64,000 nucleotides of DNA from a virus. Lineage: Duplodnaviria > Caudoviricetes. The stretch's first letter is position 1. Each line of letters begins with the position of its first letter. The notes under the pieces are model-generated. The model saw nothing but the letters and a program-made list of their open reading frames with translations. It had not been told where the DNA came from and searched no databases. Location of the stretch: positions 32,001-96,000 of IMG/VR virus record IMGVR_UViG_3300013105_000843. One strand, written 5' to 3'. A program made the position numbers and the translations under genes. Positions 10,924-61,986 of the stretch are shown here, in pieces.

Positions 10924-11604
10924 TCAGTACAGGTAGCCGTTGAACGTCTCTTCGATGCTGACCTTGTGCTTTTTCGCGTACTTCACGGCCTCGGCGACGT
11001 CGTCGAACGAAGGCCCCGGGGCGGACATCGCCCGGTCGTTCTCCGCCGAGCTGCGCGTCACGTGCAGCGTGCCGCCCTTGAAGTGCCCTTCGACGCCATG
11101 CTCTTTGGCCAGGTCGAGGACGGCCGGCGGGACCGGTTCGGCGTAGCTCGCTTCCGCTGAGCCATAGTCGGCCTGCACCCAGTCCCATACCGACTGCGAC
11201 ACCAGCTTCACGACCGTATCTCCGCCACCCGACAGCACGAGCAGGTACTGCTTGCCCTGGGTGGTGGATTTCGGCCGGGCCACGACATCGAAGCCGAGCT
11301 TGTCCGCCCATTCGCGCAGCATGCGCTCCTGCAGGGCCGGCTCCGTGTGGCGCCAGCCGTAGGTCTGCAGATGCGACACGCCGAGGTTGCCGCCGATAGT
11401 CACGAGCGAGGTGCTGTCGGCGTGATGCACTTCGACCACGTGCGCTGCATTGGCATGACCACCCGAGCCGACGTCCAGCCGGTCCGGACGGTGCGTCATC
11501 ATCAAGCGAATGGCATCGGCGAGGCTCTTGCCGAACGTCGGGTCCTTCTCCAGCCGGTCGAGCGCGTCGACCATCACCACGACAGTAGCGTTGTAGCCCA
11601 TCAA
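10924..11604 (-). CDS. hypothetical protein
   Basis: 226-aa ORF with AAGGAG RBS; terminator at about 10878-10903. Confidence 0.7.
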   Translation of the reverse strand: MMGYNATVVVMVDALDRLEKDPTFGKSLADAIRLMMTHRPDRLDVGSGGHANAAHVVEVHHADSTSLVTIGGNLGVSHLQTYGWRHTEPALQERMLREWADKLGFDVVARPKSTTQGKQYLLVLSGGGDTVVKLVSQSVWDWVQADYGSAEASYAEPVPPAVLDLAKEHGVEGHFKGGTLHVTRSSAENDRAMSAPGPSFDDVAEAVKYAKKHKVSIEETFNGYLY

Positions 11605-18562: not shown

Positions 18563-19293
18563 ATCAGGTCCAGTTGCCGGACATTGGCCACTGCCCGCAG
18601 CGCCGGCCGAATCACTGACGGCGGGGACACCTGCTCAATCGGGACGCCGCGGCGCAACTGGGCGACGGCGTGGCTGATGGACGTCTTCGCGCCGTCACCC
18701 TGAAGCACTCGGGGGTGCGGGAACAGCGATTTCGCAAAGTCGACGATAGGCGAGCCATCATGGGCCAGACCGAGGCACATCAACGGCACGGGGATTTTTT
18801 CAAAGACCGTGTCGGACACCTCGGCGACTCGCCGCAAGGTCGTCTCGTGGGTCGAAAGCCCCGAGTCGGTAAGATTCGCGGTCTCGTCGGTCAACGAGAC
18901 ATGGATGGCGAGCGCGAGCCTGCCCTGTGCCTGCAAGTGCAGGAACTTGAAGATATCGCTGTAGAAACGGCCCACGTTGCCGAGCTGGACCTCCACGGCG
19001 ACCACCTGGCCGCCGCCGACCTGTCGGCAGAAGTCCACCCGCATGCCATTCGCGCCATCGCTGGCGCCGGTTGCCCGCCATTCGCGCTCCCAGCCCCGGT
19101 CTACCAGTTCCTGTTCGATGTAGGCGTTGAGCACCGGCTGCAGCACGCTTTTGGCCGCCTGCTTTTCCGACTTTCCCCGCCAGTACGGCACCGGCGTAGC
19201 CACGAGTGCGTCAAGCACACTGGCCGCGCATGCCGCCACCTGCTCGTCCCGGAGCGCGCGCTCAGTCTGGTGGTCGAAACGGATGACTTGCAT
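18559..19293 (-). CDS. BglII/BstYI-family PD-(D/E)xK endonuclease
   Basis: LQPVLN..I...L...GW, VDF, VAVEVQLGN and YSD.FKF motifs. Confidence 0.7.
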   Translation of the reverse strand: MQVIRFDHQTERALRDEQVAACAASVLDALVATPVPYWRGKSEKQAAKSVLQPVLNAYIEQELVDRGWEREWRATGASDGANGMRVDFCRQVGGGQVVAVEVQLGNVGRFYSDIFKFLHLQAQGRLALAIHVSLTDETANLTDSGLSTHETTLRRVAEVSDTVFEKIPVPLMCLGLAHDGSPIVDFAKSLFPHPRVLQGDGAKTSISHAVAQLRRGVPIEQVSPPSVIRPALRAVANVRQLDLI

Positions 19294-26903: not shown

Positions 26904-27103
26904 GGTGGGGCTCCTAGAGAAAGTCTCTAGTGCCCGTGCAGTGCAATGTAATTGCGGTAGGTCATGAAGAAGGCGGCGCAGCGAGGGCGGGTTGTTTCAA
27001 TGGAGTATACGTTATAATTGAAATATGGCAAGTTTAGCTGCGCCACATAGAAGAAAGCCCACCATGGTAGGCGGGCTTTCGTGAGGTATTGCGAGACAGT
27101 GCC

Positions 27104-29105: not shown

Positions 29106-29486
29106 TTACAGCCCGAACAGGCGCCCCAGGACCGAACGGCTGAAGCATGCCCGCCCTTCTTGTTCGACCTGTTTCTGATAGGCGGAAGCGCGCGCCATGA
29201 CCTCGGCCTTGCTCGGGCCGCACAGATTTTCGATGGGCTCCTCGACCGGCACGCGCGTCGAACGATTCACCCGGGTCCCGTAGGCACAGTATTCGAGCTT
29301 GCCGCGCGCGTCGCTCGGAATCACGAGGATGAACTGCAGTTCCGCCGCCTTGGAAGCCTTTTCCGGGCAGCCCGAGAAGCCATAGGCGATAAAGCCGACG
29401 ACCAGCGCCACTAAACCGCAAAGCTGCACGCGCCATGCAAGTCGCAGATTCCCCTCAGACAACCGGTTGGTGGCGTCGTCCGTCAT
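29106..29486 (-). CDS. membrane-anchored Cys-containing hypothetical protein
   Basis: Starts 1 nt after the smpB stop; one TM segment. Confidence 0.55.
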   Translation of the reverse strand: MTDDATNRLSEGNLRLAWRVQLCGLVALVVGFIAYGFSGCPEKASKAAELQFILVIPSDARGKLEYCAYGTRVNRSTRVPVEEPIENLCGPSKAEVMARASAYQKQVEQEGRACFSRSVLGRLFGL

Positions 29487-29487
29487 G

Positions 29488-29937
29488 TCACATCTCCCCG
29501 CGCGCTGCGGCGCGTGCCAGGTCGCGTTGCTTGAGCGTTTCGCGCTTGTCGTGTTGCTTCTTGCCGCGGGCAAGGCCAATCACGAGCTTCAACGTGCGCC
29601 GGCGCACCACTGCGAGCGGCACGACCGTGTAGCCTCGCTCGGCGACCTTGCGGCCGAGCTTCTCCAGCTCGTGCTTTGTCAGCAGCAGCTTGCGCAGCCG
29701 ATTGGGCTCGCGCGGCGTGAGCAGGCCCTGGTGATGTTCCAGCAGCGGCGTGATAGTCATGGCGTCGAGAAATGCCTCGCCGCCAGTGAAACGGATGAAT
29801 GCGCCGCCGCCGTTGAAATTGGCGCGGCCGCCGAGCATCGCCTTGACCTCCCACCCCTCGAGCACGAGCCCGGCTTCGAGCGTGTCCTCGATGGTGTACA
29901 GATGGCGAGCCTGGCGATTTTCGATTACGGTCGTCAT
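29488..29937 (-). CDS. smpB: SsrA-binding protein SmpB
   Basis: NRQARH.Y.I...EAGLVL.GWEVK, R.RKLLL, GYTVVPL and ARGKK.HDKR motifs. Confidence 0.95.
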   Translation of the reverse strand: MTTVIENRQARHLYTIEDTLEAGLVLEGWEVKAMLGGRANFNGGGAFIRFTGGEAFLDAMTITPLLEHHQGLLTPREPNRLRKLLLTKHELEKLGRKVAERGYTVVPLAVVRRRTLKLVIGLARGKKQHDKRETLKQRDLARAAARGEM

Positions 29938-29982
29938 CGAAGTCTGCCCTGCGTGCTTTTGCTGTTGTTTGCGTTAACGAAT

Positions 29983-30011
29983 AGTATATTCGTTAAATGC
30001 GATATCGGCAA
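29983..30011 (-). promoter_or_regulatory. sigma70 promoter of smpB
   Basis: TTGCCG-17 nt-TATACT. Confidence 0.65.
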
Positions 30012-30096
30012 GTATTGGGCGAAGCGCAAACGCCCCGGCGGTCCGGGGCTCAAGGTTAGGCAGGGAACGCGGTTGGATGCCGTGTGCGGCTGTCGG

Positions 30097-30831
30097 TCAG
30101 CCTGGCATCTGGTGCGAGGACAGCGCTGCGGTCATCGCATCGTACATCCTGAGGGCATCCTGGATATTGTTCCGGAATTGCCCGGTCATGAACTGGTCGA
30201 CGGTCACGTAGCCCTTTTTCCCGCTAATGCGGATGACAATCTTCGAATCCGGGTGGATTTTGCGCAGGCCTTCGATATCGTCGGGCGTGGCAACGAAGTC
30301 GTACCGTTCGGTGACGCCGCCAGGCAGCTGGTCAGTGTCAACCCGAATATTCTTGAAATCGCGCGAGAAAACCACTTCACCATCGACCATCACGGCCACC
30401 TGTTCCATGAAAAGCCAGCCGTTCGGGCCAAAGTAGTATGGCTTCATGACCAGGACGGGCATCTTGCCATCGCGCAGGGAGATGTAGGTCTCGAGGGACG
30501 TGTCAATTTCCAGCTGGACACCCGGCGTGTAGAAGCGCAGATTTCGGAACGCATCGCGTTTTCCGAACGCCAGTGCACGTGGTATCCGTTTCGAGGCGGG
30601 AGGAAACTCGAAGTACGCGAGAAAGCTGGTGACGCCGTCCTTCTCGTCCTTACGCTGTTTCTCCTGGTAGACGCTGCCGAGCGCTCTCGTCCAGTCGGCC
30701 ATCGTGGGCGGCGGCGCGGCCGGAGCGACGGCCGCCGCGGGAGACCCCGAAGCAGCCTGCGCTACGGGTTTTGAGCATCCACCTAACGCGAATACAGCCA
30801 GCACGGCCACCACAATCGGCGTCTTCATCAC
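30097..30831 (-). CDS. lipoprotein of unknown function
   Basis: Signal peptide with LGGC lipobox. Confidence 0.7.
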   Translation of the reverse strand: MMKTPIVVAVLAVFALGGCSKPVAQAASGSPAAAVAPAAPPPTMADWTRALGSVYQEKQRKDEKDGVTSFLAYFEFPPASKRIPRALAFGKRDAFRNLRFYTPGVQLEIDTSLETYISLRDGKMPVLVMKPYYFGPNGWLFMEQVAVMVDGEVVFSRDFKNIRVDTDQLPGGVTERYDFVATPDDIEGLRKIHPDSKIVIRISGKKGYVTVDQFMTGQFRNNIQDALRMYDAMTAALSSHQMPG

Positions 30832-30942
30832 CCCTCTCCCCGTTTTTGTTGCCTGCGGAGCGTCTTAGGCCCCTTTCAGTTGACAAAAGCGTAGCGCAGG
30901 ATTGAGGGCTTGCAAAGCCGGGTTGGGCCTCATACGGCGGAG

Positions 30943-30980
30943 TAAAACAAAACGCCCCGGCTTTGGACCAGGGCGTTTTG
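30943..30980 (-). terminator. intrinsic terminator of the tmRNA transcript
   Basis: AAAACGCCCTGG-loop-CCGGGGCGTTTTGTTTT on the minus strand. Confidence 0.75.
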
Positions 30981-31256
30981 CGCGACTTTGGGCGACCGGG
31001 CAATCGCGGCCCGGTGGCAGTTTAGGCAACTGCCAGATAACGGCTGTCGTTAGCAGTTATTTTTTGCGTCTTTCGCCGCGCGAAACGCGCCGCCGGGCAT
31101 GCGCCTGCCCTCGTTGCCGCCTTTGCCTTCATGCGCTGTCAAAACCTGTCAGCCCCATCACATGCACACCTGAGACAGATGCGCAGGTGGTGGAGCTGGC
31201 GAGGAACTCGAACCCCACTTCCAACACACGTCAACTCTGGAGGAGTTACAACGATT
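30945..31256 (-). ncRNA. ssrA: circularly permuted (two-piece) tmRNA
   Basis: Acceptor piece first (..GGGGTTCGAGTTCCTCGCCAGCTCCACCA, ending at 31188), a 31-nt spacer, then the coding piece starting GGGGCTGACAGGTTTTGAC at 31156; G3:U acceptor pair; tag frame 31054-31022 encodes ANDSRYLAVA-stop. Confidence 0.9.
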
Positions 31257-31261
31257 GAATG

Positions 31262-31290
31262 AGTATATCTCTAATATCGCAAAATGGCAA
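31262..31290 (-). promoter_or_regulatory. sigma70 promoter of the tmRNA
   Basis: TTGCCA-17 nt-TATACT directly upstream of the acceptor piece. Confidence 0.8.
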
Positions 31291-38442: not shown

Positions 38443-38543
38443 GGTGCGTGCGATACTGCACCCCTCTCAGGTTCTGGCTTCAAGCCCTCGGAAGGGCCAG
38501 AACTCTTCAGACCGGCATTCCCTGCCGGTCTTTTTTTGCCCGG

Positions 38544-39245
38544 CTACCCGCCCAGTATTTTGACAAGCAGCGCCGCGATACCGCCCATCGCGAGCGCCGG
38601 CCCAAACGCCAACGGCTCGCAGGTGTCGCGACCGCGAAGGCGAAGCGTCACGATGACCGCCATCTGCAGCGAGCAGCCCACTGCCAGCACAACCGGTAGC
38701 GCGAACACGCCTAGCCACGCGCCGAGCGCGGCCAGCAATTTGAAGTCGCCGTAACCGAGCCCTTCCAGCCCCGTGGCCAGCCGCCAGCCCCAGTACAGGC
38801 TCCACAGCACGAGGTAGCCCACGACCGCGCCTTCCACCGCTTCCGGCAAGGGCGCGAGCACCCCGCACAGATTCACCAGCAGACCCGCCCAGATGAGCGG
38901 CAGGGTCAGGTCGTCCGGCAGCAGCCGCAAATTCAGGTCGGTCAGGGCGAGCCCCGCCAGCACGAGCACCAGGCCGCACGCGGCGAACCCCGCAGCCGTC
39001 GTGCCCATCAGCACGGGCATCGAGAGCGCAAGCACTGCGCCGGGCACCAGCACCCGGGGCCAGCGTCGGAACGCGCCGCGCGCGCAATCCCCGCACCAGC
39101 ACACCCATGGCGGGTGGCCGGAATCCAGGCCGGCGCCGCACAGCGAGCAGACTTCTCCCTCCGGCGCGGGCGCGGCCCGGGCGGCCGCTGGATGGTCGGG
39201 CTCGGGCAGAGTATTCAGGTCGGTCATCAGCGCAACGGTTGGCAT
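38544..39245 (-). CDS. A24 prepilin peptidase-like protein
   Basis: TDL...LLPD.LTLPL.W.GL, GLGYGDFKLLAALGAWLG and AFGP.LA; CxxC/CxxC pairs at the N-terminus. Confidence 0.85.
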   Translation of the reverse strand: MPTVALMTDLNTLPEPDHPAAARAAPAPEGEVCSLCGAGLDSGHPPWVCWCGDCARGAFRRWPRVLVPGAVLALSMPVLMGTTAAGFAACGLVLVLAGLALTDLNLRLLPDDLTLPLIWAGLLVNLCGVLAPLPEAVEGAVVGYLVLWSLYWGWRLATGLEGLGYGDFKLLAALGAWLGVFALPVVLAVGCSLQMAVIVTLRLRGRDTCEPLAFGPALAMGGIAALLVKILGG

Positions 39246-39413
39246 ATTACGTATTTACGAGTATATTACGCATCCGGCCGACCACCGGCAAGTCCTGTCC
39301 GCCAATCCTGCCGCGTCAACCAGCCCGATATCGCAAAACAGCCGAATTGCCCCGCGCATCGACCTATACGGTCTTGCAGCAATTTTGCTGTTTCTAACAA
39401 GAGGAAACAAAAC

Positions 39414-41645
39414 ATGAAGAACGCACTCTACAACCACACCCTCGGCAAGGACATGCTGTCCGAGTCCAAGTTCTACATGGGGTACTCCCGGTGGAACGGC
39501 GCCAAGGCGGGTTACGAGACCTGGGAAGAATCGGTCGAGCGCGTGATGCAGATGCATCGCGAGAAGTATTCCGAACGGCTGTCCCCGGAGCTGGAAGCCT
39601 ACCTGGCGAAGGCGGAGCTGGCTTACAAGAGCCAGTGGGTGCTGGGCGCACAGCGTGCCCTGCAGTTCGGCGGCGAGCAACTGCGCAAGCACGAGGCCCG
39701 CATGTACAACTGCTCGGTGTCGCATTGCGACCGGCCGGCCTTCTTCCCGGAAGCGATGTATCTGCTCCTGTGCGGCTGTGGCGTGGGCTTCTCGGTGCAG
39801 AAGCATCATGTCGCGATGCTGCCGACGCTGAAGAAGCGTTCGGCCAAGCGCGTCAAGCTGTTCCAGGTGCCGGACAGCATCGAGGGTTGGGCGGACGCTT
39901 TCGGCGTGCTGCTCAGCTCGTACTTCGGTGAGGGGCCCTTCCCGCAGTACAAGGGCTGTCATGTCCACTTCGATTTCAGCCTCATCCGTCCGAAGGGCGC
40001 GATGATTTCGGGTGGTTTCAAGGCTCCGGGACCGGACGGTCTGCGCAACGCGCTCAACAAGTGCGAAGCCCTGCTCGAGCGCACGCTCGGTGAGGCTAAC
40101 GAGGTCGCGATGCCGCCCATCGTGGCGTACGACTTCGTGATGCACATGAGCGATGCCGTGCTGGCTGGCGGTGTGCGCCGTTCGGCGACCATCTGCCTGT
40201 TCGACAAGGACGACGAGGAGATGCTGAGCGCGAAGACGGGGGACTGGTACGTCAAGAACCCGCAGCGTGGCCGCAGCAACAACTCGGTGGTGCTGATGCG
40301 TGACGAGTTGACCCGCGAGGAATGGGCGCAAATCATGAGGTCGGTTCGCGACTTCGGTGAGCCCGGCTTCATCTTCACGGAGAACAAGGAGTTCGCGTAC
40401 AACCCGTGCGTGGAAATCGGCATGTTGCCGAAGACGGAAGACGGCGAGTCCGGCTTCCAGTTCTGCAACCTGACCGAAATCAACGGCGGCAAGTGCACGG
40501 ACGAAGAGCGCTTCTACAAGGCATGCGAGGCCGGCGCCATCCTGGGCACGCTCCAGGCAGGTTACACCGACTTCAAGTACCTGACGGAAGCCACGCGTCG
40601 CATCACGGAGCGCGAAGCCCTGATTGGTGTGTCCATCACCGGCTGGATGAACAATCCGGACGTGCTGTTCGATGAAGCCATCCTGAAGAAGGGGGCGGAA
40701 ATCGTGAAGGCAACCAACAAGGCAGTGGCCAAGCTGCTGGACATCAACCCTGCCGCGCGCACCACCTGCGCGAAGCCTTCGGGCAACGCGTCGGTGCTGC
40801 TGGGCACCGCTTCGGGCATCCACGGGGAACACGCGCCGATGTACTTCCGCAACGTGCAGATGAACGAGGACGACGAAGTCGCCAAGCTCATCATGGCCAT
40901 CAATCCCAAGATGGTCGAACGCTCGGTGTGGAACAGCAATGGCACGGACGTCGTGGTCAGCTTCCCGGTCGTCACGAAGGAAGGTTCCATTTTCAAGCGT
41001 GACCTGATGGGCGTGAAGCAGCTGGAGTTCGTCAAGAAGGCCCAGCAGCACTGGGTCGAGAATGGCACCGATGTCGAGCTGTGCGTGGACAAGCATCTTC
41101 GCCACAACATCTCGAACACCATCTCGGTCGACGACTGGGAGGCGGTGGAGCAGTACATTTTCGATAATCGCCAGTGGTTCGCAGGCATCTCGCTGCTCTC
41201 GGCGTCGGGGGACAAGGGCTATGCCCAGGCTCCCTTCACCGAAGTGCATACGCCGGACGAAATCCTGCGTACGTACGGCGAGGCCAGCATGTTCGCCTCG
41301 GGTCTGATTGTCGAAGGGCTGCACGCCTTCGATAACAACCTGTGGATGGCCTGCGATACGGCGATGGGCAACGGGCTGAAGCTCACGAACGAGGCAACCG
41401 ACCTGCTCAAGCGCGACTGGGTGCGTCGCTTCAACAAGTTCGCGGACAACTTCTTCAACGGTGACCAGCAGAAGACGGCGTTCTGTCTCAAGGACTGCCA
41501 GAATCTGCACAAGTGGGTGGCCATCATGAAGAGCATCAAGGAAATCGATTTTGCCTCGGTGCTGTCCGAACAGACGTTCGTGGACGCGAATACGTTGGCC
41601 TCCCAGGCCTGCGCCGGCGGAACCTGCGAAATCAGCTTCGGCTGA
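39414..41645 (+). CDS. nrdJ: ribonucleotide reductase, probably class II monomeric (B12-dependent) type
   Basis: YNC, NPCVEI, CNLTEIN, KPSGN and C-terminal CAGGTCEI; no beta subunit adjacent; GAGGA RBS. Confidence 0.8.
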   Translation: MKNALYNHTLGKDMLSESKFYMGYSRWNGAKAGYETWEESVERVMQMHREKYSERLSPELEAYLAKAELAYKSQWVLGAQRALQFGGEQLRKHEARMYNCSVSHCDRPAFFPEAMYLLLCGCGVGFSVQKHHVAMLPTLKKRSAKRVKLFQVPDSIEGWADAFGVLLSSYFGEGPFPQYKGCHVHFDFSLIRPKGAMISGGFKAPGPDGLRNALNKCEALLERTLGEANEVAMPPIVAYDFVMHMSDAVLAGGVRRSATICLFDKDDEEMLSAKTGDWYVKNPQRGRSNNSVVLMRDELTREEWAQIMRSVRDFGEPGFIFTENKEFAYNPCVEIGMLPKTEDGESGFQFCNLTEINGGKCTDEERFYKACEAGAILGTLQAGYTDFKYLTEATRRITEREALIGVSITGWMNNPDVLFDEAILKKGAEIVKATNKAVAKLLDINPAARTTCAKPSGNASVLLGTASGIHGEHAPMYFRNVQMNEDDEVAKLIMAINPKMVERSVWNSNGTDVVVSFPVVTKEGSIFKRDLMGVKQLEFVKKAQQHWVENGTDVELCVDKHLRHNISNTISVDDWEAVEQYIFDNRQWFAGISLLSASGDKGYAQAPFTEVHTPDEILRTYGEASMFASGLIVEGLHAFDNNLWMACDTAMGNGLKLTNEATDLLKRDWVRRFNKFADNFFNGDQQKTAFCLKDCQNLHKWVAIMKSIKEIDFASVLSEQTFVDANTLASQACAGGTCEISFG

Positions 41646-57287: not shown

Positions 57288-58466
57288 TTAGTTCGTCACA
57301 TAGCGCACCGCGTGCGCCTCGGTCGGCATCGGCGGCTCCCACTTCACGAGCATGGCCTGCAGCGTCTTGTTGGTCAGCGACGTGTCGCGCTTACTGTTGC
57401 GCGCGAGCAGCTCCGCGCGCGGCCGCTCGAGGTACACGACTTCGACCTCGGCGTGATAGGCGTAGAGCAGGTCGAGGCTGCGCGAGCGCATCTGCTCGGA
57501 CAGGTGCGTCGCGTTGAAGACGAACGGCTCGTGCGCGCGCAGCAGCGTTTTCGCCTTGTCGTGCGCGCGGTGCGCGACCATCCCCTCGTTCTTGCCGTGG
57601 CGCAGGCCCAGCTCCTCGCGTGCATCGTCGAACGACACCACAGGCCACCAGCCCACGTGCTGCTCGACCCATGTGTTCTTGCCCGAGGCCGGCAGGCCCG
57701 ACATCAGGATGACCTTCGAGCCTTCCGGCTGGTGCAACGCATAGTCGGGGTGGACGTTCGCCCCGCGAAAGTAACTCACGCGCGTGTGGGCGTCGGCAAA
57801 GGCACGCGGCGTGCCGTAGCAGCCCTCCTCGAGCGCCAGTTCGCGGAACAGCTCGATGTTGTCGAGCGCCTTCGACGCGTCAGTACAGATGCGGCCGAGC
57901 ATGTCCGCTTTCGCCAGCATCGTGAGCAGGCGCAGGTCCAGCTGGTACGACAGCGCGCGCACGCGGAATTCGGGCTGCGTAGCCTTGTGCTGGTCATCGG
58001 GGCCGCGGCTCGCGCGCTGCTCGAAAGCGTGGAAAGGCACCTGGTGTACTTGAATGAGCCGGCAGATGGCCTCGCGCACGTCGAACGGCGCGCCGGCGTC
58101 CCAAAGCGCGATGCGCGCGTCGACGGCACCCTTGCGCGAGTGGCCGGGATGCCCGATATGGCCCGTCTCGGGATGGATGTCCGTGGTGCTGTACTTCGCG
58201 ATGTCGTGCAGCAGCGCGGCCAGGAACACGGTCTCCTGGTCCTCGCGCGCGGCGGCCTGGTACTCCGGCTGCGCGAGCAGCGCCTCCACGACCATCTGCG
58301 TGTGCGTCCAGGCGTCGCCCTCGGCGTGCCAGACCGGGCTCTGCGGCGTGGTCTTCGCGTGCTCGAGCGCCGGGAAGGCCGCGAGGCATGCCGCGTAATC
58401 AGGCAGCGCGCCGGCGGCGGGCACCAGCGCCCGGATGTCGTTCCAGTTCATGTCCATGTTCCTCAT
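57288..58466 (-). CDS. HD phosphohydrolase plus P-loop polynucleotide kinase-like protein
   Basis: WHAEGD.WTHT, AALLHDIAK, HS.KGA and AD..GR; SGLPASGKNT, SFDD.R and NAT. Confidence 0.85.
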   Translation of the reverse strand: MRNMDMNWNDIRALVPAAGALPDYAACLAAFPALEHAKTTPQSPVWHAEGDAWTHTQMVVEALLAQPEYQAAAREDQETVFLAALLHDIAKYSTTDIHPETGHIGHPGHSRKGAVDARIALWDAGAPFDVREAICRLIQVHQVPFHAFEQRASRGPDDQHKATQPEFRVRALSYQLDLRLLTMLAKADMLGRICTDASKALDNIELFRELALEEGCYGTPRAFADAHTRVSYFRGANVHPDYALHQPEGSKVILMSGLPASGKNTWVEQHVGWWPVVSFDDAREELGLRHGKNEGMVAHRAHDKAKTLLRAHEPFVFNATHLSEQMRSRSLDLLYAYHAEVEVVYLERPRAELLARNSKRDTSLTNKTLQAMLVKWEPPMPTEAHAVRYVTN

Positions 58467-59531
58467 TCAGCGGCCTGGCTCGCACACGGGTGTGCCCGCC
58501 GGCACGAAGGTGCCGAGCAACCCCGCGGCCTTTAGCGCCTTGCGGCAGCCCGTGTCTTCAAACAGCGGCCCTGCCTCGCGCAGCCCGTCCGGGCGCAGCA
58601 CGTTGCCCCACTTGTCATAGCGCCGGCCGGGTGTGAGCGCCGGCGGCAGCCGCACCGCGGTGATGCCGGCTGCGCGCCGCACGTCCTCGACGCTGAGCGT
58701 CGTCATCTCCGCGGCCCAGTGGTGCGCCGCGCAGACCGCCGCGCCGTTCTCGACGTAGTAGCCGCCATCGCTCCAGAGCTTGCGCTCGAGGATGTGGTGC
58801 GCGTCGACGGCGGGTGCCGGACAGAACACGCAGCGCCCGTGCGAGCGTGCCTTCACCTGGCGGTCGAATTCGTCGCGGGTGAGCAGTGTCATCACCCCCT
58901 CCCTGGCCCGCAGCCTGTTCGGCACGATGGCTGCGTGCATCCAGTGCTCGTCGGTTTGCACGTGTTCCGCTCGCACCCACTTCGCGTACGCGCGGCCAAA
59001 GTCCTCAAAACGGATGCGGCCGGCGCGCCGCATCACGAGCCCCTCTTCCTGCGTGGTATCCAGCTCGCGCACGAGCCGGTGAAGCACGCCCTCGTCGAAC
59101 TCGCCGCGCCACACTTCGGGGACCGGCGTGACGTCAAGCAGCGCGAACACCTCGAGCGTGTCGTCCCAGGCGAGCGCCGTATTGGTCTCGTCCCACACCG
59201 AGAAGCCCATGAAGTAGCTCGGCAGGTCCGTGTACGCGAGCGAGTGCCGCGCATAGAGGTTTTCGCCGCAGATGCGCCAGCCGTGCGGAATCTCGTGCGC
59301 AAAGCGCGCATGCCAGCCCGCGAGCCAGTCGCGTGACGGGTGATGCCGGCTGTCGATGGACTTGGCGTGGAAGCCGTCGCGATACAGGCTCGTGTTCTCG
59401 CCGTCGCGCTTGAGGGTGACGACGACCTCCTCGCCGCGAAAGTGCGCGAGCGAGCGAAGCGTCTTGTCGTCGGAGGTGGCGCCCGGCGAGAACGGCATGT
59501 GCGGGGTGCGCGGATATTTCTGTCGGCCCAT
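58467..59531 (-). CDS. ATP-dependent RNA ligase-family domain fused to an HNH nuclease
   Basis: KYPRTPH, KRDGEN (KxDG), GENLYA.HS, EGLV and AKWVR; then CVFC..DAHHI..NGAAVC..HH. Confidence 0.85.
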   Translation of the reverse strand: MGRQKYPRTPHMPFSPGATSDDKTLRSLAHFRGEEVVVTLKRDGENTSLYRDGFHAKSIDSRHHPSRDWLAGWHARFAHEIPHGWRICGENLYARHSLAYTDLPSYFMGFSVWDETNTALAWDDTLEVFALLDVTPVPEVWRGEFDEGVLHRLVRELDTTQEEGLVMRRAGRIRFEDFGRAYAKWVRAEHVQTDEHWMHAAIVPNRLRAREGVMTLLTRDEFDRQVKARSHGRCVFCPAPAVDAHHILERKLWSDGGYYVENGAAVCAAHHWAAEMTTLSVEDVRRAAGITAVRLPPALTPGRRYDKWGNVLRPDGLREAGPLFEDTGCRKALKAAGLLGTFVPAGTPVCEPGR

Positions 59532-59567
59532 TGCCTCTGTCCTGGTCTTCAAAACAGCCTGCGTATC

Positions 59568-61800: not shown

Positions 61801-61986
61801 AGGTCACCTCAAATTTTGGTAGCTTTTAGTATAGCATTTTGAGATTGTATTGGCAAGTTTCAGGTTAACTTAGGCAGGACTCGCGCATGACTTGCAGATG
61901 AGCGTAATTATGATATACGTCGACGCACCAGCTTAGCACGGGCGCGCGCGACAAGCAGGCGTAGCCCGCTGGCCGCGGCGCCATAC

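Follow-up and report, generated by a model that had tools for sequence, protein, structure and literature searches.

A permuted two-piece tmRNA gene with its own smpB on a megaplasmid-like element of Burkholderiales

Anatomy of the locus

The window (the whole 64-kb stretch of DNA analysed, part of a 129.5-kb record) carries on its minus strand a two-piece tmRNA gene followed by a lipoprotein-like open reading frame (ORF), smpB and a small cysteine-containing ORF (Table 1). An original prediction, made from the letters of the window, had described a tmRNA promoter TTGCCA-17-TATACT at 31290–31262, an acceptor piece ending at 31188, a 31-nt spacer, a coding piece starting with GGGGCUG at 31156, a tag frame, a terminator near 30945 and, 1 kb downstream, smpB with a similar promoter. 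Every coordinate that it gave holds in the sequence. A promoter scan recovered the tmRNA promoter and the similar smpB promoter (TTGCCG-17-TATACT at 30011–29983), the acceptor end, spacer, coding start and tag frame lie where they had been placed, and cofolding yields a 15-bp hairpin with a U-run that ends near 30944.

Table 1 Features of the tmRNA–smpB locus, in window coordinates
Feature	Position	Strand	Description	Basis
126-aa ORF	29106..29486	-	Starts 2 nt past the smpB stop; N-terminal membrane helix, four conserved cysteines	
smpB	29488..29937	-	149 aa; complete β-barrel core; C-terminal tail with GKKQHDKR	
smpB promoter	29983..30011	-	TTGCCG, 17-nt spacer, TATACT	Promoter scan
Lipoprotein-like ORF	30097..30828	-	Between tmRNA gene and smpB; signal peptide ending LGGC	
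Terminator-like hairpin	30944..30978	-	15 bp and U-run	Cofold; aligns with RF01850 3′ hairpin
Coding piece	30944..31156	-	About 213 nt	Rfam alignments, covariation, cofold
Tag reading frame	31022..31054	-	Resume codon GCU, peptide ANDSRYLAVA, stop UAA; AAAAAAUAACU directly before	
Intervening spacer	31157..31187	-	31 nt; folds as a hairpin (-13.5 kcal/mol); predicted to be removed from the precursor	
Acceptor piece	31188..31255	-	About 68 nt; 5′ end placed from the promoter position	Rfam alignments, cofold, covariation
tmRNA promoter	31262..31290	-	σ70-type; TTGCCA (31290-31285), 17-nt spacer, TATACT (31267-31262)	Promoter scan

The acceptor piece comprises the 5′ strands of the outer P2 helix and of helix 2a, a T-arm and the 3′ strand of the acceptor stem, and closes with CAGCUCC, a discriminator A and an encoded CCA. 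The coding piece opens with the GGGGCUG acceptor strand bearing G3, a D-loop-like GGUUUUGAC and the 3′ strands of P2, and continues through two hairpins, the tag frame and a post-tag pseudoknot to the terminator hairpin, which was absent from the output of a simple terminator scan. Together the pieces form a 7-bp acceptor stem in which GGGGCUG pairs with CAGCUCC, with a wobble at G3:U70, the alanine identity pair, followed by A and CCA. The T-arm, GUGGGG-UUCGAGUU-CCUCGC, has 6 bp with two G:U pairs and an 8-nt loop, the product of a 1-nt insertion relative to a related locus, L096. The resume context UAACU-GCU is intact and leads into the codons GCU AAC GAC AGC CGU UAU CUG GCA GUU GCC UAA, a tag that ends in AVA rather than the usual AA.

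The three pairings named in the original prediction (the acceptor stem P1 with G3:U, helix 2a and GCAACGA/UCGUUGU) were recovered by an unconstrained two-strand fold and are borne out by covariation in 11 homologues. The fold energy of the window tmRNA was no better than that of shuffled sequences (z -0.14) and is uninformative; the evidence beyond chance therefore lies in the E-value of the Rfam match and in covariation.

A divergent member of the betaproteobacterial permuted form

The permuted tmRNA model RF04321 (tmRNA_permuted) matches the window at 31253–31022(-) with 73.8 bits against a gathering cut-off of 47 (E 2.8e-12 for the 64-kb window), spanning model positions 1–213 of 213. The betaproteobacterial two-piece model RF01850, the best model of clan CL00001, aligns over its full length (1–331, E 5e-19) but scores 63.7 bits, below its 84-bit gathering cut-off, and ARAGORN found neither a tmRNA nor a tRNA in the 64-kb window. 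We class the window tmRNA as a divergent representative of the betaproteobacterial permuted form that lies below the curated threshold, and the window copy is the weakest member of its tmRNA family. An independent permutation event, which had been put forward as a possibility, finds no support, since the RNA can be aligned with RF01850 from one end to the other; relatives score 96–127 bits with this model, above its cut-off.

SmpB scores 141 bits against PF01668 (cut-off 27), 135.5 bits against the NCBIfam equivalog TIGR00086 (cut-off 119.1) and 147.8 bits against NF003843 (cut-off 130), and aligns to Escherichia coli SmpB from ribosome complexes such as 7acj (E 8e-30). The proposal of an element-encoded permuted tmRNA with its own SmpB, located on mobile DNA and not on a main chromosome, is supported. 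The dN/dS values of smpB, 0.11–0.31 against relatives and 0.11 against L096, show the gene to be under purifying selection. In its basic tail, which contains GKKQHDKRETLKQRD, Leu140 occupies the position of E. coli Trp (W147), and the Trp of the beta- and gammaproteobacterial RDW/REW motif is missing from 16 of 16 tails of the element clade. This Trp is not a universal feature, because the SmpBs sampled from Bacillota, Chitinophagales and Gemmatimonadota also lack it. The SmpB phylogeny, proposed as a check in the original prediction, places the element SmpBs in a deep clade of their own on a long stem, apart from the SmpBs of lineages with a chromosomal permuted tmRNA; on present sampling it is a clade found solely with these elements.

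The lipoprotein-like ORF had no match in Pfam, PHROG or NCBIfam and appears to be cargo, not a component of the rescue system. The 126-aa ORF, which had neither a Pfam match nor an Atlas lead, lies directly 3′ of smpB in six relatives at 27–31% identity and may be a co-transcribed smpB companion. The promoter pattern TTG[AC]C-N16-18-TATACT occurs at six sites in the 129.5-kb record, against 0.18 expected, and the tmRNA promoter is one of them; a single strong promoter class is common to the tmRNA gene, smpB and the tRNA array.

Conservation and covariation among related loci

In 11 of 12 loci (counting the window and ten relatives), the same tmRNA precedes, in the same orientation, an smpB of the same clade, with about 0.1 to 3.4 kb between the two genes among the relatives. 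Across 11 homologues, 85.3% of cells in the alignment are paired, against 42–53% in slid controls, and 29 pairs have changes on both sides. The acceptor stem is paired in 100% of cells, G3:U occurs in 11 of 11, UCCACCA is invariant and the -10 element TATACT is kept in 10 of 11. Five relatives exceed the 84-bit RF01850 cut-off (L011, 109.7; L097, 127; L098, 126.8; L201, 124.1; L204, 95.8 bits), and five more pass RF04321 alone, as the window does. The T-loop has 7 nt, the canonical size, in L096, L097, L098, L201 and L011; L112 also has an odd T-loop and keeps the remaining tmRNA structure.

ARAGORN called intact tags in nine of ten relatives. The L096 tag encodes a peptide identical to that of the window, from which it differs by three synonymous changes and TAA to TGA, with zero replacements. 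Other relatives encode tags such as ANDEVFAVAA, ANDSQYLAAA and ANDERYAVAA, and one-piece tmRNAs of sampled genomes encode ANDDTFALAA and ANDNSYALAA. The suggestion that the element redirects tagging is therefore unlikely, since these are ordinary tags of the AND....A(L/V)AA class with the same length as those of the sampled one-piece genomes.

Spacers vary from 31 to about 170 nt across the plasmid sub-group, and in five relatives the loop of the spacer hairpin contains an extra structured domain of about 135 nt. This insert had zero Rfam matches at E up to 1 and gave nothing but inconsistent calls with ARAGORN at lowered thresholds, and its core motif was not found elsewhere among 213 loci or in IMG/VR. 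A blastn search of a phage collection with the tmRNA gene returned zero matches. A search of genome, metagenome and viral collections with the single SmpB returned almost exclusively chromosomal SmpBs at 45–53% identity and recovered L112; the SmpB locus search patterns favour the canonical KKQHDKRE tail and are a weak guide to the frequency of the element clade.

The carrier element and its host

IMG/VR labels the record a provirus, with a CheckV completeness of 63%, and it is a 129.5-kb excerpt of its replicon whose two ends both cut through ORFs. It encodes a TrwB-type T4SS coupling protein, TraT, an S26 peptidase, a ParM-like protein, paralogues of GyrA, GyrB, LigA and RuvB, an RNase R-like exonuclease, a release-factor gene and an NrdJ-like gene. 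About 30 tRNA genes form a single array at 7.7–18.4 kb of the record, and an RNA ligase and an HD/P-loop kinase (Pnkp-like) are paired at 57288–59552 of the window. The genes follow the same order as on a 629-kb Paraburkholderia contig, and relatives are located on 500–840-kb contigs or plasmids of Paraburkholderia, Burkholderia and Variovorax. Carriers include Paraburkholderia sp. EG287A (GCA_040965615.1), B. multivorans (GCA_019039935.1) and Variovorax sp. SRS16 and WDL1. Despite its provirus label, the record looks like part of a conjugative, tRNA-array-bearing megaplasmid. By gene content it has the marks of the Burkholderiales tRNA-carrying conjugative megaplasmids of the pSRS16-1 type, namely a tRNA array, conjugation genes and shared markers. 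At the level of type, the host is a Paraburkholderia/Burkholderia-type soil bacterium.

The original prediction had called the locus a second, mobile ribosome-rescue system. Conjugation and partition genes, the tRNA array and the megaplasmid relatives uphold the mobile part, and the word 'second' depends on the one-piece tmRNA of sampled chromosomes. A standard one-piece tmRNA is present in Paraburkholderia xenovorans and in one Pandoraea genome, and we infer that the host of the record also has its own one-piece system, which would make the element pair a second one. Among 400 sampled Burkholderiaceae species genomes, none had a second SmpB, a count that holds with or without the one genome flagged as unpublished (G220). 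One Paraburkholderia species genome (G509) combines a chromosomal one-piece ssrA and smpB with a permuted tmRNA on a 729-kb contig. We rejected this contig as the same element, as SmpB, LigA and other shared genes are absent nearby and the tag is different; its extra permuted tmRNA is a related phenomenon.

A proposed accessory rescue module

We consider it likely that the locus is an intact accessory trans-translation module on a conjugative megaplasmid-like element of a Paraburkholderia/Burkholderia-type host, and that it serves within a translation kit. What the sequences show of the module is its gene anatomy, its family membership, its conservation and covariation, and purifying selection; its processing, charging and tagging activity would follow the paradigm of the Caulobacter and betaproteobacterial two-piece tmRNAs. 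The strong σ70-type promoter would produce a precursor of about 310 nt, with transcription probably starting 1–2 nt ahead of the outer P2 helix. The tRNA-like fold, with its 7-bp stem, G3:U, T-arm, A and CCA, would direct RNase P to cut 5′ of G31156, and tRNA 3′-end enzymes would trim the precursor to the CCA at 31188. Both cuts would free the 31-nt spacer hairpin and leave the acceptor piece of about 68 nt paired to the coding piece of about 213 nt. Host AlaRS is predicted to charge this two-piece RNA through G3:U, and the element SmpB would bind the tRNA-like domain and, with EF-Tu, bring the RNA to ribosomes stalled on broken mRNAs. Translation would resume at GCU and add (A)ANDSRYLAVA, directing the product to host proteases. 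Besides the module, the kit includes RNA ligase and kinase genes, a release-factor gene, an RNase R-like exonuclease and about 30 tRNAs, and as a whole it may lessen the dependence of the giant plasmid on host translation upkeep.

The module could instead be kept mainly against RNA-damaging attack by anticodon nucleases, ribotoxins or toxin–antitoxin mRNA interferases, such that, with the tRNA array and RNA-repair enzymes, translation of plasmid and host survives RNA cutting. We regard this emphasis as unlikely, and it is compatible with the mechanism proposed above. It draws on the RNA ligase/Pnkp-like kinase pair, the RNase R-like exonuclease and the roughly 30 tRNAs of the element, on RNA ligase and RNase H genes within 2–5 kb of the tmRNA in L097 and L098, and on the discussion of plasmid tRNA arrays as putative anti-defence devices (PMC12803027). 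However, all of this evidence is contextual, the surroundings of the module yielded no partner nuclease or toxin, the tags are of the ordinary kind, and the same gene content fits a general translational self-sufficiency of very large plasmids equally well (bioRxiv 10.64898/2026.09.01.748738).

A more speculative extension, to which we give little credence, is that the plasmid pair is a natural orthogonal rescue system in which SmpB prefers the plasmid two-piece tmRNA over the host one-piece RNA. If this were true, the megaplasmid would hold private control over rescue and tagging in any host. It would also follow that the permuted gene form of betaproteobacteria had passed between such plasmids and chromosomes, which would explain a beta-type tmRNA beside an SmpB unrelated to the SmpB of those lineages; in one version, the Rhodocyclales-type chromosomal gene could descend from a plasmid copy that replaced a one-piece gene.

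Decay of the window tmRNA seems improbable, and so does a shift from full trans-translation to a non-canonical role, for example the titration of SmpB or of host factors. The low RF01850 score, the failure of ARAGORN, the enlarged T-loop with its G:U pairs and the AVA end of the tag would all fit this reading, and a phage tmRNA consisting of the tRNA-like domain alone has been reported to inhibit host tmRNA (PMC4131195). Against this, the acceptor stem, G3:U, discriminator, CCA and resume context are intact, the tag differs from that of L096 only synonymously, smpB is intact and constrained, both strong promoters are preserved, and L112 combines an odd T-loop with an otherwise conserved structure.

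That the module belongs to a (jumbo) prophage and serves its lytic cycle, as the IMG/VR label would imply, is very unlikely. Huge phages do carry tRNA arrays, tmRNA and SmpB (PMC7162821), and the RNA ligase, NrdJ-like and LigA genes, together with a Phage_30_3 domain in L096, are phage-like; the provirus class and the CheckV estimate also count on this side. Yet Pfam, PHROGs and NCBIfam gave zero matches to phage capsid, portal, terminase or tail families in about 50 ORFs scanned, a part of the ORFs in the record; the coupling protein, TraT and ParM-like protein are present, the record ends cut genes, and, of the annotated relatives, the closest are plasmids that bear F-type tra genes (PMC7313664). 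It is most unlikely that the pair is the sole, chromosomal ssrA–smpB of a betaproteobacterial lineage with a known permuted tmRNA: the RNA is of the beta permuted type and a Zoogloeaceae metagenome-assembled genome (MAG), which lacks a standard tmRNA, and an Accumulibacter genome have chromosomal permuted examples at 240–267 bits, but the element SmpB clade is separate from the SmpB of those lineages, the named carriers are Paraburkholderia, Burkholderia and Variovorax, and the genes present are those typical of conjugative elements, with the tRNA genes in one array rather than scattered.

Implications

The pair is real and conserved across a giant-plasmid family, and adds one more case to a known kind of system without representing a new mechanism. 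The occurrence of tmRNA and SmpB on huge phages and large plasmids has already been published (PMC7162821). The locus places on giant conjugative plasmids of soil Burkholderiales a complete, selected rescue pair beside a tRNA array, a release-factor gene and enzymes of RNA turnover and repair. It is a concrete example, described down to its anatomy, for the view that some of the translation infrastructure of very large plasmids is encoded by the plasmids themselves. With one-piece and two-piece systems and two very different SmpBs expected in each cell, such hosts offer a test bed for SmpB–tmRNA specificity, and the plasmid pair bears on how the permuted gene form has spread. In practical terms, the window allele escapes both ARAGORN and the clade-specific Rfam threshold, in a record that carries a provirus label.

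Comparison with known systems

We found no description in the literature of a tmRNA–SmpB pair on Burkholderiales megaplasmids, and the text of the supplement to the paper on the tmRNA database, which counts 11,946 permuted sequences, does not list Burkholderiales megaplasmid carrier taxa. Several known systems share parts of the arrangement. In the Caulobacter two-piece tmRNA (Keiler, Shapiro and Williams 2000, in the account given by PMC11915505), the mechanistic paradigm, tRNA-processing enzymes cut one precursor and the acceptor and coding pieces stay base-paired; as cited there, it differs from the window tmRNA in representing an independent (alpha) permutation and in being chromosomal and the sole system. 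Phage tmRNAs, described from mycobacteriophage cluster C and Bacillus phage G (PMC4131195) and, in two-piece form, from the marine phage Melnitz and its relatives (PMC9004378), resemble the window tmRNA in being extra tmRNA genes on mobile elements, some of them two-piece. They differ in that no cognate smpB is described with them and that their carriers are not plasmids. According to its description, the Melnitz gene is nearest to alphaproteobacterial (SAR11-clade) tmRNAs; a riboswitch is linked to it.

A tmRNA together with SmpB is also carried by huge phages and by large putative plasmids (Al-Shayeb et al. 2020, PMC7162821), and SmpB is a predictor of plasmid tRNA load (bioRxiv 10.64898/2026.09.01.748738). 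These elements, mobile DNAs of several hundred kilobases, carry like the record tRNAs, release factors, tmRNA and SmpB. The surveys deal mostly with phages and describe neither the anatomy of the RNA and the form of its gene nor the phylogeny of SmpB or the family of the element; the window differs from their elements in its conjugative carrier and permuted beta-type RNA.

The RNA itself corresponds most closely to the betaproteobacterial two-piece tmRNA (Sharkady and Williams 2004, as cited in PMC9004378 and PMC11915505). This form shares with the window RNA the order of promoter, acceptor piece, spacer, coding piece and terminator, a long P2 that pairs the coding piece with the 5′ leader of the acceptor piece, G3:U, an encoded CCA, a 10-codon AND... 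tag and a single pseudoknot with a hairpin after the tag. Chromosomal betaproteobacterial examples, each the only tmRNA of its cell, reach 240–267 bits (RF01850 type), against 64–127 bits for the plasmid sub-group, which is further set apart by its location on giant plasmids, its adjoining, divergent smpB and its variable spacers.

[quoted passage not shown] They differ from the record in host family (Comamonadaceae), in an N-terminal extension of SmpB (166 aa) and in a tmRNA–smpB distance of about 80 nt, against 1 kb in the window. Like the record, they carry a full tRNA array and tra genes, and their smpB, whose product is 65% identical to the SmpB of the window, comes immediately after a permuted tmRNA of the beta type (109.7 bits). 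With a coupling protein 53% identical and an NrdJ-like gene 78.7% identical at the DNA level, these megaplasmids appear to belong to the same element family as the record.

A two-piece tmRNA gene and its smpB

A permuted tmRNA gene with its own smpB had been proposed on the minus strand at 31290-29488, and every feature described there was found, base for base. The permuted architecture was borne out by Rfam, whose permuted tmRNA model RF04321 matched at 73.8 bits (cut-off 47, E 2.8e-12). ARAGORN made no call for the tmRNA region of the window, probably because the T-arm carries a 1-nt insertion relative to that of Paraburkholderia sp. EG287A (L096, the nearest relative), giving an 8-nt loop, and contains two G:U pairs; the window allele is the least canonical member of the family. 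An unconstrained two-strand fold of the predicted pieces returned the expected pairings (a 7-bp P1 stem with G3:U, a 9-bp helix 2a and the outer UCGUUG/CAACGA helix), together with the T-arm and CC/GG pairs. Because the energy of this fold has no advantage over shuffles (z -0.14), it is not usable as evidence for the tmRNA.

As predicted, smpB lies downstream behind a similar promoter; a consensus scan of the tmRNA/smpB region found two such sites, where shuffled sequence would give 0.6. Across the 129.5-kb record, TTG[AC]C-N16-18-TATACT occurs at six sites, all on the minus strand, compared with 0.18 expected, and these look like a common strong-promoter class for the translation and partition genes of the element.

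Directly 3′ of smpB, in the window and in six relatives (27-31% identity), lies an ORF of 126 aa in the window, with an N-terminal membrane helix and four conserved cysteines (xCP, G[KR]LEYC, CGxxKAE, C). It matched no Pfam family and gave no Atlas lead, and may be a companion of the tmRNA-smpB module.

Features of the module, its carrier and its relatives (window positions unless a record, genome or locus is named)
Feature	Position	Strand	Remark
TTG[AC]C/TATACT sites	record (G000:C1) 10946-10973; 18707-18734	minus	in or at head of tRNA array
TTG[AC]C/TATACT site	27004-27031	minus	before uncharacterised ORF
TTG[AC]C/TATACT site	61828-61856	minus	before ParM-like gene
tmRNA promoter	31290-31262	minus	TTGCCA-17-TATACT; consensus scan
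Predicted transcript start	~31255	minus
Acceptor strand	end at 31188	minus	CAGCUCC, discriminator A, encoded CCA
Spacer	31187-31157	minus	31 nt
Start of coding piece	from 31156	minus	GGGGCUG
Tag frame	31054-31022	minus	GCU...UAA, ANDSRYLAVA
Hairpin with U-run	end near 30944	minus	15 bp
smpB promoter	30011-29983	minus	TTGCCG-17-TATACT; consensus scan
smpB	29937-29488	minus	149 aa; PF01668 141 bits; both NCBIfam equivalogs passed
SmpB tail	29488-29560	minus
ORF after smpB	29106-29486	minus	126 aa; begins 2 nt past smpB stop
Release-factor fragment (RF-1 + PCRF domains)	G000:C1 1-498 (L012)	minus	truncated by record start
RNB-domain exoribonuclease	G000:C1 105009-107156 (L014 13009-15156)	minus
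RNA ligase (PF09414) and adjacent HD-domain/P-loop kinase protein	57288-59552	minus
NrdJ/RTPR-like B12-dependent reductase homologue	39114-41645	plus	843 aa; under equivalog cut-offs
ncS54 match (RF02871)	38460-38538	plus	44.5 bits, cut-off 43
Spacer inserts	L096 7020-7186; L097 7439-7601; L112 3021-3174; L199 4579-4742; L200 2605-2765
Extra permuted tmRNA of G509	G509:C3:538804-539053 (L210, L213)		132.5 bits

Comparative evidence for the tmRNA

The evidence beyond chance comes from comparison: we aligned the window gene with ten homologous tmRNA genes from contigs encoding the same SmpB clade and counted covariation on the structure written from the window sequence. Standard pairs fill 85.3% of cells, compared with 42-53% after shifting the partners by 1-3 columns; both sides change in 29 of 62 pairs, and none of 500 shuffles reached the observed covariation score. 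The acceptor stem is paired in 100% of cells, G3:U is present in all 11 sequences, and compensatory changes fall in helix 2a, the T-stem, the pseudoknot after the tag and the terminator. The -10 TATACT is conserved in 10 of the 11 genes, and ARAGORN read intact tags in nine of the ten relatives. In L096, whose SmpB is 89% identical, the tag is ANDSRYLAVA as in the window; three codons differ synonymously, the stop is TGA rather than TAA, and no residue is replaced. At 11 of 12 loci, window included, the element-type smpB is preceded by a permuted tmRNA gene in the same orientation (in L202 none was found within 5 kb), and the intervening ~0.1 to 3.4 kb hold variable cargo.

The original prediction had also raised an independent permutation event. 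This is unsupported: the alignment of the window RNA to RF01850, the betaproteobacterial two-piece model, spans the model's full 331 positions, promoter and terminator hairpin included. RF01850 was the best of the tmRNA clan (63.7 bits, E 5e-19), under its 84-bit cut-off, which five relatives pass with 96-127 bits. Chromosomal genes score 267 bits in a Zoogloeaceae MAG, which lacks a standard tmRNA, and 240 bits in an Accumulibacter genome. The plasmid genes, at 64-127 as against 240-267 bits, therefore make up a divergent branch within the beta form already known.

The spacer hairpin that separates the tmRNA pieces is enlarged in five relatives by a conserved structured insert of ~135 nt; the window spacer is without it. 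Of the 51 pairs predicted in the consensus fold of the insert, 18 show compensatory changes; a T-arm-like hairpin, GCGGUUCGAGUCCGC, and an AGUA/GAA motif are part of it. The insert matched no Rfam family at E up to 1, does not read consistently as a tRNA, and its core motif was not found elsewhere in 213 loci or IMG/VR. Possibly it is an RNA housed within the tmRNA precursor that the same processing sets free.

A distinct SmpB clade

The window SmpB aligns with the E. coli SmpB of ribosome complexes through the GKKQHDKR tail motif, and dN/dS within its clade is 0.11-0.31. In a 40-sequence tree, 16 element SmpBs form one clade (support 100/99) on a long stem (0.93), outside the clade (97/95) of all sampled beta- and gammaproteobacterial chromosomal SmpBs. 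A topology uniting them with Rhodocyclales-type SmpBs is worse by 18.5 log-likelihood units (p-AU 0.022), and one uniting them with Burkholderiaceae SmpBs by 24.3 units (p-AU 0.046), both constraint groups having been chosen after the tree was seen and long branches being present. The element SmpB therefore was not copied recently from a host gene, nor is joint inheritance with the beta-type RNA obvious. None of the 16 proteins has the Trp that belongs to the RDW/REW tail motif in beta- and gammaproteobacteria; E. coli W147 aligns to Leu140 of the window SmpB. The clade divides into a Burkholderia-type group of 149-152 aa and a Variovorax-type group of 161-182 aa with an N-terminal extension.

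Carrier element and relatives

The carrier record (129,556 bp) is labelled a provirus in IMG/VR. It encodes a TrwB/TraD-type coupling protein, TraT, an S26 signal peptidase, a ParM-like actin, an ArdC-like domain, paralogues of GyrB, GyrA, LigA and RuvB, an NrdJ-like reductase, an RNase R-like exonuclease, an RNA ligase, an HD plus kinase protein and ~30 tRNA genes in an array. Capsid, portal, terminase and tail families had no matches among the ~50 ORFs scanned. As ORFs run off both ends, the record is an excerpt of something larger; given the conjugation and partition genes, the cut ends and the missing structural matches among those ORFs, it appears to be part of a giant conjugative plasmid-like element, and the provirus label looks wrong.

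RNase R is the partner of tmRNA-SmpB in non-stop mRNA decay; the best match of the RNB-domain enzyme is the RNase R equivalog, at 349.6 bits, under its 597.85-bit cut-off. The HD/kinase protein has weak Pnkp-like and CCA-enzyme-like matches and, with the adjacent ligase, looks like an RNA-repair pair; two relatives (L097, L098) have RNA ligase and RNase H genes near the tmRNA. The ncS54 match, a double hairpin with a terminal U-run just downstream of a metallophosphoesterase gene, is to a Burkholderia sRNA and fits a Burkholderia-lineage host.

SmpBs 60-96% identical to that of the window fall into at least 120 sequence clusters, many on 366-809-kb contigs, among them contigs of Paraburkholderia sp. 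EG287A, Burkholderia ubonensis and B. multivorans and one from a compost metagenome. Genes on the EG287A contig follow the same order as in the window (integrase-like gene, gene without assigned function, LigA, tmRNA, SmpB, SymE-like gene). In PLSDB the only close relatives are four 800-840-kb Variovorax plasmids, published as 'tRNA-carrying megaplasmids' with F-type tra genes in a paper that does not mention tmRNA or SmpB (PMC7313664). Like the window element, they encode an SmpB (65% identical), a coupling protein (53%) and an NrdJ-like gene (78.7% DNA identity over window 39454-41640); the last, annotated there as 'recombinase', is the most conserved stretch between both elements. Their permuted tmRNA lies 80 nt upstream of smpB.

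Co-residence with a one-piece tmRNA

Standard one-piece tmRNAs scoring >200 bits are present in P. xenovorans LB400 and a Pandoraea genome (tags ANDDTFALAA and ANDNSYALAA). Exactly one SmpB, at most 53% identical to that of the window, was found in 394 of 400 sampled Burkholderiaceae species genomes, which include the unpublished G220, on which no result depends. One of 151 sampled Paraburkholderia species genomes (G509) combines both gene forms, which shows co-residence in Paraburkholderia: its chromosome carries a one-piece ssrA (212 bits) and smpB, and a 729-kb contig the extra permuted gene. The latter has no SmpB within 10 kb, the genome having a single SmpB, and its tag, as we read the frame, is ANDGSYTLRANG, which differs from the window tag and has a non-canonical end; this gene is an accessory two-piece tmRNA of the orphan kind. 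We infer co-residence for the SmpB-bearing element and also for the record's own host.

Proposed role and comparison with known systems

If the RNA behaves like the two-piece RNAs of Caulobacter and betaproteobacteria (cited in PMC11915505), RNase P would cut the precursor at G31156 and 3′ trimming to CCA at 31188 would remove the spacer hairpin, leaving the acceptor and coding pieces paired via P1 and P2. AlaRS would charge the RNA through G3:U, the element SmpB would bring it to stalled ribosomes, and the tag would send the product to host proteases.

Part of a wider translation kit of tRNAs, release factor, RNase R-like enzyme and RNA ligase plus kinase genes, the module is best read, in our preferred interpretation, as helping to make a giant plasmid generally self-sufficient in translation. 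A candidate alternative, compatible with this, is an anti-ribotoxin role. Redirected tagging, also suggested originally, is unlikely because the N, D and aromatic residues are kept in the tags, as is a hydrophobic end (AVA in the window).

Our literature search found no description of the pairing seen here, a beta-type permuted tmRNA with this SmpB clade specific to plasmids. Second ssrA alleles have been reported 'sometimes on a plasmid', while just one plasmid was found to carry smpB (Hudson et al. 2014, PMC4131195), and two-piece tmRNAs were already known on phages (PMC9004378). Al-Shayeb et al. 2020 (PMC7162821) report tmRNA and SmpB from huge phages and 'analogous suites' from putative plasmids of large size, and in a 2026 preprint SmpB is one of the genes that best predict the tRNA load of a plasmid (10.64898/2026.09.01.748738). 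The plasmid pair is a further instance of an already known type of system.
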